From Octopus vulgaris (Eukaryota), in contig OX597822.1 in assembly GCA_951406725.2 (NCBI GenBank), positions 50,220,001 to 50,284,000 of the forward strand: a DNA stretch of 64,000 nt, written 5' to 3'. Positions 9,236-57,240 of this stretch are shown one piece after another. A program made the position numbers and the translations under genes. A model generated the notes under the pieces. It was not told the DNA's origin, searched no databases, and saw only the letters and a list, made by a program, of their open reading frames with translations. Each line of letters starts with the position of its first letter. Position 1 is the first letter of the stretch.

Positions 9236-9416
<181 letters not shown>

Positions 9417-9419
9417 AAA

Positions 9420-10408
9420 GCGTTTCAACAATTGTCTGACAGGTGGGAACAAACATTTTTGCATGCTAAATATGTGGCCCATAGCAAACAAGATCAGAAG
9501 CACACCCATCAGTGCCCTCGAAGCTCGGGAACAAAGGCAGAGCGTGAAGGCTTTATTACAGCTGCTCAAGGTCAGAGCTTAGTTACCAGGAACTAACAAA
9601 CCAATGTAATGAAAAATAGAGTAGACCTAAACTGCTGATACAGCAACGATGAGATTGAAACAGGGGATTACCTAATGTCTGGGTGTAATGTTTTATCACC
9701 TATAGAGTAAGTATCAAAACATGAGAGAGTTGGCCAATATCTCTCTACACTTGATAATATGTCGGCATTATAAAATGAAAACTGCTGACAAATGGTACAG
9801 GCACCACACCGAGGCTGTAACTGAGGGAGAAAATGTAACGATCGTTTGGAGATTTCCAGTATGAACAGACCGGACCATCAAAGCAAATAAACCAGATATT
9901 GTTGTGAAAGAGAAAAATAATAAAATCAGTATATTGATTGACATGAGCATAGCTTGTGATCATAATATCTCGGCAAAAGAGTTTCATAAGCGCAGAAAAT
10001 ATAAAGATGTGCTGATTGAAATCGAAAAAGACGGTTACGACAGCAGTGATTGTAGGAGCACATGGAATGTTCAATATAAAGAACTTAAAATGTTGAGGAT
10101 GGTTGCTGGTTCAGCATCCATGCAGGAAGTCCAAAAGATTGTCTTAACTGCTACGTACTGAGAAGAGCATTTTCGCAGTGAATTTTCTCTCCTTTTCCCC
10201 CTTAATTTTTATTGATTTCTTTTTATCATTATTTTCTTTTTTTATTCTTTCGTTTTGTCATTCTTCCCATTTTTTTTCTAACACATGATATATAACGGAC
10301 TAATCTTGTGTGTTTATTTTAATGATCTGAAAATGCATACAGTGAGTTACTTTGTCCTAGGTGTTAAGAAGACATTCGGCAAGAAATGGAAACAAAATTG
10401 AGAAACGA
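9420..10408 (+). mobile_element. 5'-truncated R4/Dong-like non-LTR retrotransposon (zinc knuckle + restriction-like endonuclease + 3' UTR)
   Basis: Decayed translation EGFITAAQGQSL, DYLMSGC, TDRTIKANKPDIVV...ILIDMSIACDHNISAKE, QEVQKIVL. Same subfamily as 35908-37948. (TAA)n on both sides. Confidence 0.85.
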
Positions 10409-23060: not shown

Positions 23061-24569
23061 ATCCCACAGGGCTGTGAATGACTCTCGCCACAACAACCTT
23101 AAAACAAAAAATATCCCAGTATATATATATTTGCAATATCAGCGCAAATTCCAACACTTGATACACATGACTGGTCTGCAGAAGAAATCCACTCCATAGA
23201 CATCAAATATATTCATTCAATCTTTTGTCATTTGTTCTTAATCAAGTTTTCCATTTAGTTAACAAACATTTATATCATGTTGCTACAATTGTACCGCTTG
23301 CTCGTGTAATTTCTGTAGGGGATTTTGCTAAAATTTAGTTCAACCCTAATTGATCAAACCCATGTTGAAAATCTCTCCATCCAGAGCATTTCTGTATTCG
23401 TATCTGGAATATACGACTACAGTGTACGAGGAGAAACTTGTTATTTCTAGAAAAGCAAACCACCACGTAGTCTCTATCTTTGACTAATGTTCAATCCTTA
23501 TGTTCCGTTCATTGTCTATGCCATGATGCAGATGATTATTGTTATATTTCTCTATTTCCAGAATAATAGATATAAATAATTTATTATAAACTCGAATCCC
23601 GAATAACAGCATTCCCCTTTAATAATGTGCAAATTTTTCGTTATATGTATTCATGCAGACATTCTTTCATTCTTAAAACTTTTAAATACTTGAGTTAAAA
23701 GTACACGGTCAATACAGACAGCATGTCTTGAATGTTTCAAACGAATCAAACCACATCCTTATCCTGGTCTGTTCACAACCAATCAAAAAAAGGGAGAATA
23801 AGAGGATCGGAAGCGGAACTGAATCCAGACTTGGATAACGGTTACGATATCTATCGATTCACAAATTATGGAAGGCAAATTTATCTTCGGTGGGAGTTGA
23901 AATCACACCGAACAGAGACCGGACGAATAACGCAAGGATTTCTATATCCGACGCTTTAGAAACCGATCTAGCCTGAGGCCTTATAAATTATACTATTCTA
24001 CATTTAAACTTTGAATCTAAGAGCATTCATCTATGACTTCTTATACTGTTTCAGTTTCACTTCTACTCTCACATTCTCTTCATTTCTTTCCCTCAATAAC
24101 ACAGAGAAGCGCGCGTACACACATGCGCACACATCACTACATGCCGGCACACATTCTGTCATGTAAAGAAAATTTCGTTTGGAAGTCTTTCAAAGCCTGT
24201 CTTGTATTGAGCTATTTGGAATAAACATGCAAGCTCGCATTTCAAACATTCCTAATCTGCATAAATCTGCAGATGTTAGCATCAATGTGTTCCAGATATA
24301 ACTGGCGTTTGAGGAAACAAGGTCACTCTACAGCCTCAATTTGTGTCAGTAACTGATGCTACCGTTCTAGATTAGAATTTCTTCGGCATCAAAACAAATT
24401 ACTACCGAAATCAGTCTCCTTAATCTTGTTTGTTACTACACTGACGATTAAAATTTTCCAAACAAATGAAATTCCCTGGCGTATTCTACTTGAAGACTAT
24501 TTAGTGAGATTACTCACAGGTGAAGCTGATTACTTGGATATTGCGAGTTAGTGGATATATATACATGTA

Positions 24570-24795
24570 TTCTTTTATTCTTTTATTTGTTTCAGTCAAT
24601 TGACTGCGGCCATGCTGGAGCACCACCTTTAGTCGAGCAAATCGCCCCCAGGACTGACACTTTGTAAGCCTAATACTTATTCTATCGGTCTCTTTTGCCG
24701 AACCGATAAGTTACGGGGATGTAAACACACCAGCGATGCTGAGGAACAAACACATACACACAAACACATACATACATACATACATACATACATAC

Positions 24796-24870
<75 letters not shown>

Positions 24871-24980
24871 CGTATATATATATACATATATATATATATA
24901 GAGAGAGAGAGAAGACACGTGCCCAAAATGCCACGCAGTGGTACTGAACCCAGAATCATGTGATTGGTAAGCAAGCTACT
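24570..24980 (-). mobile_element. SINE family B lacking its first ~20 nt, internally deleted
   Basis: Minus strand starts AGTAGCTTGCTTACCAATCACATG...GGGTTCAGTACCACTGCGTGGC. The 3' half is intact at 24570-24760. Confidence 0.9.
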
Positions 24981-25990
24981 TTATTTTTAAAAATTTGCCA
25001 TCAAGGCATGATACAGAGTAGCTTGCTGGTTAGAGAAAGACATTGATGAGCAGAATGATGTTAAGGATGATATTAATGGGAGAAGACAAAAGGCCCCCGC
25101 CGATTTTCTGCTTCTCTAAAACAATATTCTCTTCTTTTCTCAACAGAAAAAGACAAAACAAGGTAATGAACCGCTCACTTCAGTTTTACAAATTTTTAGA
25201 CTAATAGTCCATATACCAAATGGGGGGGGGGGGTAAGCCTCTTAAACACGATAACTTGCAATAAACATTAAACGTTGTAACACTGAGGCTTTTCAACATC
25301 TTGTCAATATTCCTCCCCGACATCGCTTGTGTCCGTATATTCTAGCATTCTCCACCCCTCATTCAAGACCAAGATGGGATCCGAGCCGGCGTCACCCGGC
25401 CACAAGGGATATTCCTAATTGCGTTCCCGCAGCCTATACCCCACAGACACCTTTATGACCTCCACAGCTATCTGCGGAGGCCATTCGGGATCCTGTGTGA
25501 AGGCTAAAGGTACTCCATTATGGTGCCCTTCCACCACCTCTTGTACCTCTCCGCCTCTGTAGAAAAAGAATAATAGTTCCGATTCCTCCGGGATTGAGGT
25601 AGTCAATTTTACCGTTGGCGGCACAGTTCCCCCAACGGTGTCTCTTGACATGTCGGTGGCTCAACCCCTACCGACAAGGATCCGGAATATTCCGTTGCTA
25701 TGTCTCCGACTGCCGGCAATGTCCTATTTCTCCTCGTTTTCCTCTTTTTTCCCTCTCAACGCGTTTCAAAGGTAAAGACAATACGCCACTTCATTTGAAA
25801 CAGTCCTTCCCGCAAAACAAATTAAATAGAACTTGGGATTTTGGTGGAGGGTGAAAACGGACAGGTGAGGACGGTGAGGGCTGTTAAGCCAAGACGATGT
25901 GAGAAATTATGAATGCTGGAAAGACGAGCTATGAGAAGAGACATGTAAAAGCAAGTTTTTATGAAGGAAGTGGAAGAAGAAAATAGATCA
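24981..25990 (-). mobile_element. Unclassified element (copy 1) whose 3' end is fused to the SINE B head; 5' boundary uncertain
   Basis: 24981-25135 aligns with 56689-56850. Ends in an A-rich AAAAATAA on the minus strand. Confidence 0.65.
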
Positions 25991-30552: not shown

Positions 30553-31052
<500 letters not shown>

Positions 31053-34134: not shown

Positions 34135-34620
34135 CTGGTAGAGAAGGATTCATGTTATTTGTTTAATAACTGTGTTGAGTGATGTGATAGGATTTGTATA
34201 GTTTTCCTCAAACATAACTAGCAGGGGACATTTTAGCCTTACTATGGAGGACGGGAGTCAATGATAGACCATGTTATGTTATGTGTTATGTTGTTTTTCC
34301 TAAGGTAGTGTATGTGCTCTGCCAGGGACGTAGATCTACAATGTTTTTCATAACTGAGTTTAAATACGCAGAATATCTTTGCTTAACATTAATAGTTGCT
34401 CCAATATAAATCTTAGTAGAGTTTTGGGGTTTATTCAGGACCCTGTACTTATAAGTCACATTAGACCACATTGCAGTGATCTTGCAACAAGCATTTATTC
34501 ATTCGTGCTGTTATTGTAGGTATTGGCGATTGAAAGCGTAAATGTTCCTGACTTATGCGAGAAAGGGCAGCGTAATTGTCGCAGTTTGTAACAGACTCCT
34601 TATTATCGTAATTGGTACTA
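34135..34620 (-). pseudogene. Penelope-like GIY-YIG endonuclease remnant
   Basis: NKCLLQDHC..NVTYKYRV...KIYIGATINVKQRY (VIY...YIG.T...K.R pattern). Confidence 0.7.
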
Positions 34621-35907: not shown

Positions 35908-37948
35908 TGAGTTTTTCTTCTTCCTTCAAATTTGCTTCTTTTTCTTGCCGAGTGTTTTCCCGACTCCTATGGCAAAGAAATCCATAGTATACATTGGTAG
36001 GCCATTAAACTAAACTCACTAGTTCGTTCATTTTTTTTTTATAGAAATAAAGTTAAACTAAAATACATGGGTAGTAATAGTTCTCACATCGACAATATCT
36101 CTTCTCAATACGTGTGATGTACCAGTTAAGACAATCTTTTGCACTTCTTGCAGGGATGGTAAGCCAGGGATCATTCTCATATAATTTTCGGTTCCCTTCT
36201 TTATCATCCCTAGTGCTCCTACTATCACTGGTATTGTAACCCCATTTTCTCAATTTCAATGAGCAGGTCTTTATATTTTCTGAGCTTGTCAAATTCTTTC
36301 GCCGAGATATTATGATCACAGGGGATGTTCATGTCGATCAATAAGCAAACTTTATTGTATTGGTCTTTCACAACAATATCCGGTTTATTGGCTTTGATGG
36401 TTCGGTCTGTATGTACTGGAAAGTCCCACAGAATCATTACATTTCCTCCTTCAGTTACAGCTTCAGGGTGGTGATTATACCATTTGTCGGCAGTTTTGAT
36501 ACTGCAATGCCGACTTATTAGCCAGCGTAGATATTGGCCAACTTTGTCATGTCTTAATTTATACTCCACTGGTGCTAAGACTTTACATCCAGAGATTAGG
36601 TGGTCCACTGTTTCAATCATGTCGTTGCAGAATCGGCATTTTGGGTCTGCTCTATTTTTCATCACATTGGCCTGGTAGTTCCGGGTTAATAGGCTTTCAT
36701 CTTGAGCAGCCAGGATGAAACCTTCGCTCTCTGCTTTTAGCCTTGAGCTCCGTAGCCACTGATGGGTTGCTTCTGGTCAACATCAGCTTGTTTGCTACGG
36801 GCGACATATTTGCCGTGCAGATGTTTCTCCTCCCACCTATCAGCCAATTGCTCATGCGCTTTTTTCGTTGCCATTATTTTCACCTTCTTTGCAACAATAG
36901 TTGCCGTACTTCCCTCGGGTTGTTCAGTTTGGGTATCCTGCACGAGATCAATAGCATATTTTTTGCTTTTCTTTATGATAGAATGAAGCTTCTTTCGTCT
37001 CTCGTGATTTTCCACGAGCTTTAGCATCCAGTCATTCGTTATTTCAAGATATTTGGCCAGTCCAATTGTGGTTGTTTTGTAAGCTAGTTCAAATTGGATC
37101 AGGCCTTGACCTCCTTGGGCTCTGGGGAGGTAAAGGCGATCTACGTCTTCCTTTGGGTGGTGCATCATATTAAGACTCAGCAGTTTGGGTATTTTCCTAT
37201 CTATTTTCTTTACTTCACTCATATTCCAGTTCAAAACATTGTAGCTCTAAGTAACAACTGGGACTGCTAATGAATTTATAGCTAACACCTTGTTACGTGC
37301 ATATAGTTCAGATTTCAGGACTGCTCGAACTCTCCTATAACATTCCTTCCTGATCTTCTCTTTCATGCTTGCATGCTGAATACCAGAGCCTTCATTTATC
37401 CCTAAATATTTGTAGGTTTGTTCTTGCTCAAGCTCTCTTATGACTGTGTCAACATCTAACACAACTGAATTTGTGGTCTTCACTTTCCCTTTCTGGAAAG
37501 TGGCCTTGGCAAACTCCTCAAGCCTAAACTCCACCCCAATGTCATCACTGAATGCTTTCACAGTGCGCAATAGGTCTTCAAGTTCATTATCGTCTTTACC
37601 ATAGAGTTTTAATTCATCCATATAAAATAGATGGCTTATTTTTTTATTGACAATTTTATACCCATACCCCATTCTGTTCAATTCACTTGTAAGGGGTATT
37701 AGGCCTATGCAGAATATTAGAGGTGAAAGTAAGTCACCTTGAAAAATGCCACAGTTGATGTTTATATTCTCTCAGGCAAGTACTCCGTTAGAGTGGTATA
37801 ACTGGAGATTCGTATTCCACAACGACATATTATACTTCAGGAAGCTTGAAATCACGGGTGAAATTTTGAAGATGTCCAGCGATTTCAAGATCCATAAATG
37901 CGGTATACGGTCGAAGGCCTTTTTATAGTCAATCCATGCGGAGCTGAG
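35908..37948 (-). mobile_element. 5'-truncated R4/Dong-like retrotransposon: RT, CCHC and RLE domains, frameshifted
   Basis: AWIDYKKAFDRIPH, GIFQGDLLSPL, HLFYMDELKLY, YKYLGI, CRFCNDMIETVDHLISGC, KPDIVV...LLIDMNIP. (TTA)n on both flanks. Confidence 0.93.
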
Positions 37949-41968: not shown

Positions 41969-42003
<35 letters not shown>

Positions 42004-42005
<2 letters not shown>

Positions 42006-42417
42006 CGCAGGAGTAGCTGTGGTAAGTAGCTTGCTAACCAACCACATGGTTCCGGGTTCAGTCTCACTGCGTGGTATCTTGGGCAAGTATCTTCTGCTAT
42101 AGCCCCGGGCCGACCAATGCCTTGCCTTGTGAGTGGATTTGGTAGACGGAAACTGAAATAAGCCTGTCGTATATATGTATATATATATGTGTGTGTTTGT
42201 GTTTGTGTGTCTGTGTTTGTCCCCCTAGCATTGCTTGACAACCTATGCTGGTGTGTTTACGTCCCCGTCACTCAGCGGTTCGGCAAAAAGAGACCGATAG
42301 AATAAGTACTGGGCTTACAAAGAATAAGTCCCGGGGTCGATTTGCTCGACTAAAGGCGGTGCTCCAGCATGGCCGGAGTCAAATGACTGAAACAAGTAAA
42401 AGAGTAAAGAGTAAAGA

Positions 42418-56487: not shown

Positions 56488-56549
<62 letters not shown>

Positions 56550-56551
<2 letters not shown>

Positions 56552-56688
56552 GACGGGCTCTTTTCAGTTTCCCTCAACCAAATCCACTTAAAATCTTTGG
56601 TGGGCCCGAGGCTACAGTAGAAGGCATTTGCCTTAGTGCAACTCAGTGGAACTGAATCTGGAAGCATGTGGTCAATAAGCAAACTACC
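56550..56688 (-). mobile_element. SINE family B 5' half lacking its first ~20 nt
   Basis: Minus strand: GGTAGTTTGCTTATTGACCACATGCTTCCAGATTCAGTTCCACTG...GCCTCGGGCC...GGAAACTGAAAAGAGCCCGTCG. Confidence 0.85.
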
Positions 56689-57240
56689 TTATTTCATAAA
56701 ATTTGCCCTGACAGCATTACAAAGAGTAGCTTGAGGGCTGGACTGAAACATTAATGAGATGAATGGTGAAAAAAAGATGAAAAAGGATATTGATGGGAGA
56801 AGACAAAAACCGCCCGCCGATTTTTTGCTTCTCTAATACACTATTCTTTTTAAAAAAAGAAATTGAGATATTAAACCTCTTACTTTCCTTTATTACTTTT
56901 GTCTATCTACAAGAAAGAACACACAAAACTGAGACACCAAGTCTCTTCAACCTGTAAATTTTCTAGCCACCTGCTGGTAAATCCTGCAGCTGCAATCCGG
57001 GTCTCGAAAATAGATAATTGTAATATTCTAATACTTCAAAAACCCAGTTCCTTTCTCTCCCCACCAAGCTTTCTCTTTCTCTTCGATTCTTTTTATTGTG
57101 TTGCCTCTCTCTAGTTCTTTCTCACCTTTTCTCAGAGGGCAACCATGTTTATTTTGACCAGGACAGTTTGTAATGTAGCGTATATCATGCTATAAACTCC
57201 TGTTGGATTACTGTACCGTCCGAGCATGAAGATTATAGTT
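56689..57240 (-). mobile_element. Unclassified element (copy 2) whose 3' end is fused to the SINE B head; 5' boundary uncertain
   Basis: 56689-56850 aligns with 24981-25135 (e.g. ATGGGAGAAGACAAAA, CCCGCCGATTTT.TGCTTCTCTAA, AGAGTAGCTTG). Confidence 0.65.

Follow-up and report, generated by a model that had tools for sequence, protein, structure and literature searches.

Octopus LINE copies inserted at one fixed base of an abundant SINE, with a site-sharing L1/Tx1-like LINE as their likely helper

Two LINE remnants in a 64,000-nucleotide stretch of the Octopus vulgaris genome (the window; contig OX597822.1, positions 50,220,001 to 50,284,000) end at the same base of a dispersed SINE. We consider it highly probable that they are truncated non-autonomous copies that inserted independently at this fixed base, and that they were likely copied in trans by the APE-RT of an L1/Tx1-like LINE sharing the site.

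Results

Two truncated copies and their host SINEs

A sequence-only reading of the window had described two diverged termini of about 155 bp, 32 kb apart, that enter a SINE at one common base. Both observations are borne out, the termini being identical in 119 of 153 aligned columns. They are real 3' ends, but of elements longer than had been thought, copy A (about 780 bp) reaching to about 25760 and copy B (about 340 bp) to about 57027. The junction is fixed, as claimed, but, judged by target-site duplications at other loci, the boundary lies one base before the stated position, with the element ending in ...AAATA and the target starting with AAGTAGC. The absence of a SINE head beyond either element was also correctly reported: neither a head nor a duplication lies at the far end of copy A or copy B. 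The features of the window are as follows.

24982..25760 (end approximate), minus strand: copy A, a 5'-truncated non-autonomous LINE, 85% identical to family copies over ~780 bp
~25760-25304, minus strand: broken C-terminal part of ORF1 in copy A, matching in translation the ORF1 C-terminus of full-length copies; the 3' UTR follows, ending ...AAAATA
25017..25024, minus strand: antisense motif AAGCTACT of copy A, inside GCAAGCTACT in the 3' UTR; antisense to the target AGTAGCTT(GC), with predicted pairing to read-through SINE bases
24966..24981, minus strand: target site AAGTAGCTTGCTTACC of copy A, assigned as the downstream duplication copy from its sequence and from the duplication found at other loci
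24555..24981, minus strand: host SINE of copy A, lacking its first ~22 nt, with B-box-like GGTTCAGTACC, microsatellite and tail (BLAST against intact SINEs)
56690..57027 (end approximate), minus strand: copy B, a 5'-truncated 3' UTR with 78-90% identity to family copies; it comes from a second old subfamily within this non-autonomous LINE group
56725..56732, minus strand: antisense motif AAGCTACT of copy B, from sequence
56524..56689, minus strand: host SINE of copy B, with decayed target AGGTAGTTTGC and no match past a (TA)n tract (sequence comparison)
30553..30950, minus strand: intact SINE with empty target (GTGTGGT/AAGTAGCTTGCTAACC; sequence comparison)
42001..42398, plus strand: second intact SINE, target empty (sequence comparison)

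In intact SINEs, the target comes directly after the A-box-like TGGCTGTGTGG. A-box-like and B-box-like motifs were recognised in the SINE head by eye, against the box consensus; ARAGORN found 0 tRNA genes in the head, and it had no tRNA match in Rfam. Judged by sequence, the landing site is one exact base just behind the A-box-like motif, at the presumed promoter end of a very common SINE.

Other LINE-like sequence was seen in the window. The middle of the intact minus-strand SINE, after the microsatellite, holds 21 nt (30726-30746, minus strand) that are 86% like the 3' UTR of the autonomous LINE L241 described below (E 0.004) and may represent an ancient tail of LINE origin. Translated comparison gave weak similarity to LINE ORF1-like and RT-like sequence at 34158-34349 and 37376-37933 (minus strand), near an inverted repeat pair of 770 bp (9415-10181 and 36084-36864).

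A recurrent junction

The genome searched comprised 2.80 Gb in 227 contigs. A 19-nt junction pattern gave 1474 exact matches, compared with 0 for a reversed control, so the junction recurs far beyond chance. For the flank tallies, element matches were chosen without regard to the SINE. Among 40 copy A matches, itself included, scored out of 1369 first-look candidates, the flank was SINE body in 34, a target-like start only in 4 and other DNA in 2. For copy B, 30 of 40 matches were examined, and the corresponding numbers were 18, 3 and 9. Target specificity therefore looks looser in the B-type group, with unrelated flanks in 9/30. The sequence-only reading had proposed tabulating these 3' flanks, and most genomic matches lead into the SINE at the fixed point rather than into random DNA. 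By Kojima's definition, a target-specific family has more than 20% of its flanks of one type; the observed shares lie far above this, at 30/30 for the autonomous copies described below, 34/40 for copy A matches and 18/30 for copy B matches.

The target occurs in two variants, TAG and AAG, with 62,642 and 5,743 exact SINE heads genome-wide, respectively. AAG SINEs are older, at 20-26% divergence compared with 8-14%. All 30 young autonomous copies examined (see below) use TAG; because AAG makes up 8% of exact heads, this preference has p ~0.07 and is not significant.

Evidence for independent insertion

Repeated independent insertion into pre-existing SINEs, rather than amplification of one chimera, follows from duplications, varied insert lengths, matched variants and decoupled divergence. 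A SINE head and a duplication were present inside the fetched DNA in 67 of 185 junction rows, a few of which share one head in tandem arrays; at many of the 185 loci the fetched DNA was too short to include the 5' end. Duplications at SINE sites are about 9-16 bp long. The variant class is the same on both sides of the insert at 21 of 22 classifiable loci (expected 8.0, p 5e-5; within families expected 16.6, p 0.02), and at L011, L084, L119 and L125 private mutations are common to both sides. Insert lengths range from 41 to 5457 bp (173-5457 bp among junction rows, plus inserts of 41 and 45 bp). Seven non-SINE sites carry duplications of 12-20 bp starting AA[GA][TC], six of them preceded by T.

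Divergences were compared in the young autonomous copies (n=28, two tandem copies dropped). The elements are 0.76% apart, compared with 9.0% for the adjacent SINEs (Mantel rho 0.23, p 0.08), and elements identical across 1500 bp occupy SINEs 7-8% apart. Different SINE variants stand at the fixed junction, a pattern that the sequence-only reading had named as a sign of separate events.

One locus, L111, was compared with public contigs. One run follows the filled allele up to base 555. Another, labelled as a different organism, departs from the reference exactly at the point expected of an empty allele, by no more than 2 letters. Of the other two runs, one ends ahead of the site and one misses the flank. 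No public run listed was recorded as RNA.

The passenger is an ORF1-only LINE

Long fetches of family copies gave a full-length element of ~2.2 kb with one ORF, hereafter the passenger, and a search of these full-length copies for ORF2 found none. Because these ~2.2-kb relatives carry ORF1 without ORF2, the window copies are 5'-truncated, ORF1-only, non-autonomous LINEs. An intact reading frame of 416 residues is kept in younger passenger subfamilies. Against ORF1 of autonomous APE-RT LINEs in the same genome, this frame shows 34% identity (E 1e-28), and its zf-CCHC knuckle is weak, scoring just under the cut-off in a profile search. A protein search with ORF1 returned 2 matches in all, both from Octopus sinensis. 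The young passenger copies L111 (1204-2451), L112 and L113 have the intact 416-residue ORF1, with a C-terminal half that finds no match in autonomous ORF1; selection may be preserving this frame as the young passenger's own source of ORF1.

Some passengers form head-to-tail arrays of 3-7 elements at ~2-kb spacing (G000:C1:223694766-223706805, G000:C5:78746198-78756166 and L195-L197), in which each join is a regenerated target site. A 3.5-kb minisatellite at L126:3817-7314 has an open frame of 1166 codons and is likely no gene.

A likely autonomous partner at the same site

The junction-pattern search led to the partner. Among the first 30 junction loci, the best upstream translated match was ORF2 in 9. 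L241 is an element of 5.44 kb, with an ORF1 frame of 488 residues and an ORF2 frame of 1150 residues. L241-type ORF2 contains Exo_endo_phos (PF03372), RVT_1 (PF00078) and zf-RVT (PF13966), all over the cut-off, and ORF1 contains zf-CCHC at the cut-off. The nearest solved relative of ORF2 is human L1 ORF2p (E 7e-67, compared with 1e-20 for R2). By domain content the partner is an APE-type LINE of the L1 group, and the window copies are without ORF2. The long copy with APE-RT sought by the sequence-only reading thus exists, elsewhere in the genome.

Thirty autonomous copies, fetched out of 150 matches to the C-terminus of L241 ORF2 and hence picked by protein, all end in ...AAATA followed directly by AAGTAGCTTG; 28 run into SINE body and 2 stand in tandem with another element. 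Copies of this young family are 99% identical, with intact ORFs. The marks of TPRT are present, namely a fixed 3' end, variable 5' truncation and a target-site duplication.

Passenger and L241 share at the DNA level only their last 37 nt (78%, E 0.036), so the passenger is no simple internal deletion of L241; their ORF1 proteins are 29% identical (E 4e-23). With the weak 37-nt match as the link, the partner LINE is the likely autonomous helper of the passenger, which would be mobilised in trans.

ORF1 proteins of the Tx1 clade carry a CCHC knuckle, and the 3' UTR is short, with no long poly(A) tail. Correspondingly, zf-CCHC reaches the cut-off in the partner, and the junctions show no poly(A). 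In an ORF2 tree with unnamed outgroups, 7 targeting copies are separated, at support 70, from 20 Tx1-like copies of other families; a protein search had yielded no named Tx1 reference. The system appears to consist of L1/Tx1-like LINEs, the Tx1 placement coming from features and not from named Tx1 references in the tree. The top zf-RVT matches were considered as helpers and rejected, with the SINE junction at 0/30 loci and in 0/20 fetched copies; they belong to different Tx1-like families and were used as controls. Young Tx1-like families of this kind, with intact ORF2 frames of 1100-1150 residues, are numerous (L161-L180). Their ends have the form AATAAAGA(AAT), and they often adjoin each other; the end of L170 is an (ATT)n tract, and L163 and L164 have downstream sequence in common.

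An antisense motif that covaries with the target

The 3' UTR contains a motif, AAGCT(A/T)CT, that forms an 8-10 nt antisense copy of the target 40-75 nt ahead of the element end. None of the 19 non-targeting Tx1-like relatives has it, and it is missing in some subfamilies that still target the site (L201, L207, L257, L268, L276 and L288). Of 10 sequences folded by prediction, 8 show the motif paired with read-through SINE bases; the two that do not are a copy lacking the motif and copy B, which is decayed. At 166 of 185 junctions, element and SINE bases together make up the poly(A) signal AATAAA.

One position of the motif follows the variable base of the target. Among the 185 junctions, the target/motif bases are T/A in 114, A/T in 13, A/A in 7 and T/T in 1 (a mis-call), with 50 unclassed. 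Counted by eye, TAG targets genome-wide are accompanied by GCTACT in 256 cases and GCTTCT in 6. AAG targets gave 119 matches; among the 100 listed, again by eye, 69 have GCTTCT and 31 GCTACT, and 28 of these 31 exceptions come from one subfamily. Parsimony on a 47-tip passenger tree, built from 230-nt ends with at most 5 per class and weak at its deep nodes, gave 6 target changes, 4 motif changes and a joint count of 6, so that every motif change coincides with a target change. By eye, the autonomous tree adds ~3 changes; L294 is an exception there, and L281 is decayed.

The mismatched passenger subfamily is young (median 4.2%) and sits in AAG SINEs in 7/7 copies, with host SINEs 20% diverged; an older passenger subfamily (11%) had already inserted in TAG SINEs. 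The AAG-type autonomous copies found, in a sample that includes 20 of 170 AAG pattern matches, are all old, with sister identity of at most 86%. The use of AAG by the mismatched subfamily is consistent with a target inherited via the read-through tail, or with a helper not yet seen. A strict model in which the antisense motif guides insertion is ruled out by this subfamily, by the motif-less subfamilies and by off-target sites, which agree with only 3-5 target bases. The pattern suggests instead that motif and target evolve together, that guidance does not come from the motif alone, and that the motif likely helps priming at the landing site.

Discussion

The proposed mechanism takes as its observed basis the fixed site, the duplications, the variable 5' truncation, the intact young partner, the antisense copy and its covariation with the target; nicking, read-through, pairing and trans-mobilisation are its inferred steps. 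The partner's endonuclease would nick the bottom strand between T and AAGTA or AAGAA, behind the A-box-like motif, and a second nick on the top strand, ~9-16 nt downstream, would give the duplication. Read-through of the transcript into the SINE is probable, given that AATAAA forms across the junction. Reverse transcription would be started, as proposed for R1Bm, by read-through bases annealing to the nicked strand, and the antisense motif could fold onto these bases, keeping the RNA 3' end closed in a stem until priming. At the 5' end, target-like bases are common to copies yet unlike the recipient (L111 and L112; L114 and L242), which suggests that transcripts start inside the duplicated target. 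Together with the duplicated target, such bases would rebuild the site and allow tandem arrays.

The sequence-only reading had offered a SINE-targeting Tx1-like LINE as one option, and this option is sustained by the fixed SINE point at the 3' side of most genomic matches, the varied SINEs, the decoupled divergences and the long APE-RT copy. Its other option, that one ancestral element-SINE chimera was amplified as a unit, is refuted, as is segmental duplication, and we regard both as exceedingly improbable. They would account for window copies without head or duplication, and the Mantel rho lies above zero. Against them, identical elements stand in SINEs that differ by 7-8%, inserts of 41-5457 bp separate SINE head from body, private mutations recur within duplications, off-target sites have duplications too, and unrelated autonomous and passenger bodies use one site.

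Given independent insertion, two further accounts concern what selects the site. Targeting could be purely protein-directed, with the motif a side effect, or an RNA structure that the RT recognises, and the covariation a reflection of SINE subfamily age. The motif-less subfamilies that still hit the site speak for this account, as does the greater age of AAG SINEs, whereby time alone could tie families to variants. We nonetheless think it unlikely: the motif base has changed repeatedly, on different branches, and in the passenger tree never without a target change, and near-identical tails differ at that one base together with the target. At the other extreme, the RNA would pick the site, its read-through tail pairing with target DNA either alone or as a duplex with the motif, while the endonuclease is loosely specific. 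The motif follows the single-base variant in several passenger and autonomous lineages, and the young subfamily occupies old AAG SINEs although an older one had already used TAG, exact TAG heads far outnumber AAG heads, and no young AAG-type autonomous copy was among those found. This proposal is still rather improbable. The motif mismatches the target in that very subfamily and so is no guide there; off-target sites agree only in their first bases; a young AAG-specific helper may exist unseen, 20 of 170 AAG pattern matches having been added; and target choice in other site-specific LINEs lies with the APE domain, according to the available text of PMC4494074. Its strongest form, in which an RNA end holding both target strands pairs or swaps strands with target DNA, so that the landing site is RNA-inherited and re-programmable, is similarly doubtful. 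The reading we prefer remains independent insertion, likely by the partner's APE-RT, with the motif as a likely aid to priming.

A SINE promoter region would be an addition to the targets of site-specific LINEs. The mobile element uses the genome's most abundant repeat as a harmless landing pad, parting the repeat's A-box-like motif from its B-box-like one. The young family, with its intact ORFs and 99% identity, is usable for assays, and the covarying motif allows the shares of RNA-DNA pairing and endonuclease in site choice by an APE-type LINE to be tested, a question that bears on RNA-programmed gene insertion.

Comparison with known systems

In the papers searched, no octopus LINE that targets a SINE is described; one could be recorded in Repbase, in Kojima and Fujiwara 2004 or in supplements. 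Thirteen recently active L1-Tx1 families have been reported in O. vulgaris, in a paper whose main text, as available, does not contain the word "target" (PMC13282606), and the accessible portions of PMC8967140 and PMC4758252 add nothing further on targeting. The targets listed for the Tx1 clade are piggyBac, Mariner, Harbinger, LTR elements, U2 genes and microsatellites, with no mention of a SINE target in the available part of that source (PMC4494074).

The closest parallels described there are Tx1L in Tx1D of Xenopus and Tx1-Mar, Tx1-8_Crp, Tx1-4_AMi and Tx1-9_AMi of crocodilians, which are likewise APE-type LINEs preferring a site within another transposon, and which likewise have non-autonomous passengers (SINEU) with a common target (PMC4494074). 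Their targets are DNA transposons or LTR elements, whereas the octopus target is the presumed pol III promoter region of a SINE; the octopus passengers are 2.2-kb ORF1-only elements with an antisense target copy in the 3' UTR, and such a copy is not mentioned for the Tx1L and crocodilian systems in the available text (PMC4494074). Dewa, Keno and Mutsu are also sequence-specific LINEs in multicopy RNA-gene contexts, but in those accounts, as available, their targets are tRNA-Leu spacers, U2 or 5S genes, in contrast to a dispersed SINE of more than 60,000 copies (PMC3706591, PMC4494074). The Dada DNA transposons of Perkinsus, as the accessible text describes them, likewise use the A box (TAGCTC) of tRNA-type promoters as their insertion site; unlike the octopus LINEs, they are cut-and-paste DNA transposons that enter true tRNA genes with 6-bp duplications (PMC3706591). 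Finally, R1Bm and SART1Bm are also APE-type site-specific LINEs, for which target-sense bases of the RNA have been proposed, in the part of the source available, to anneal to the nicked strand (PMC7265360). Whereas those bases are target-sense, the octopus elements have in addition, 40-75 nt upstream, an antisense copy whose sequence varies in step with the target.
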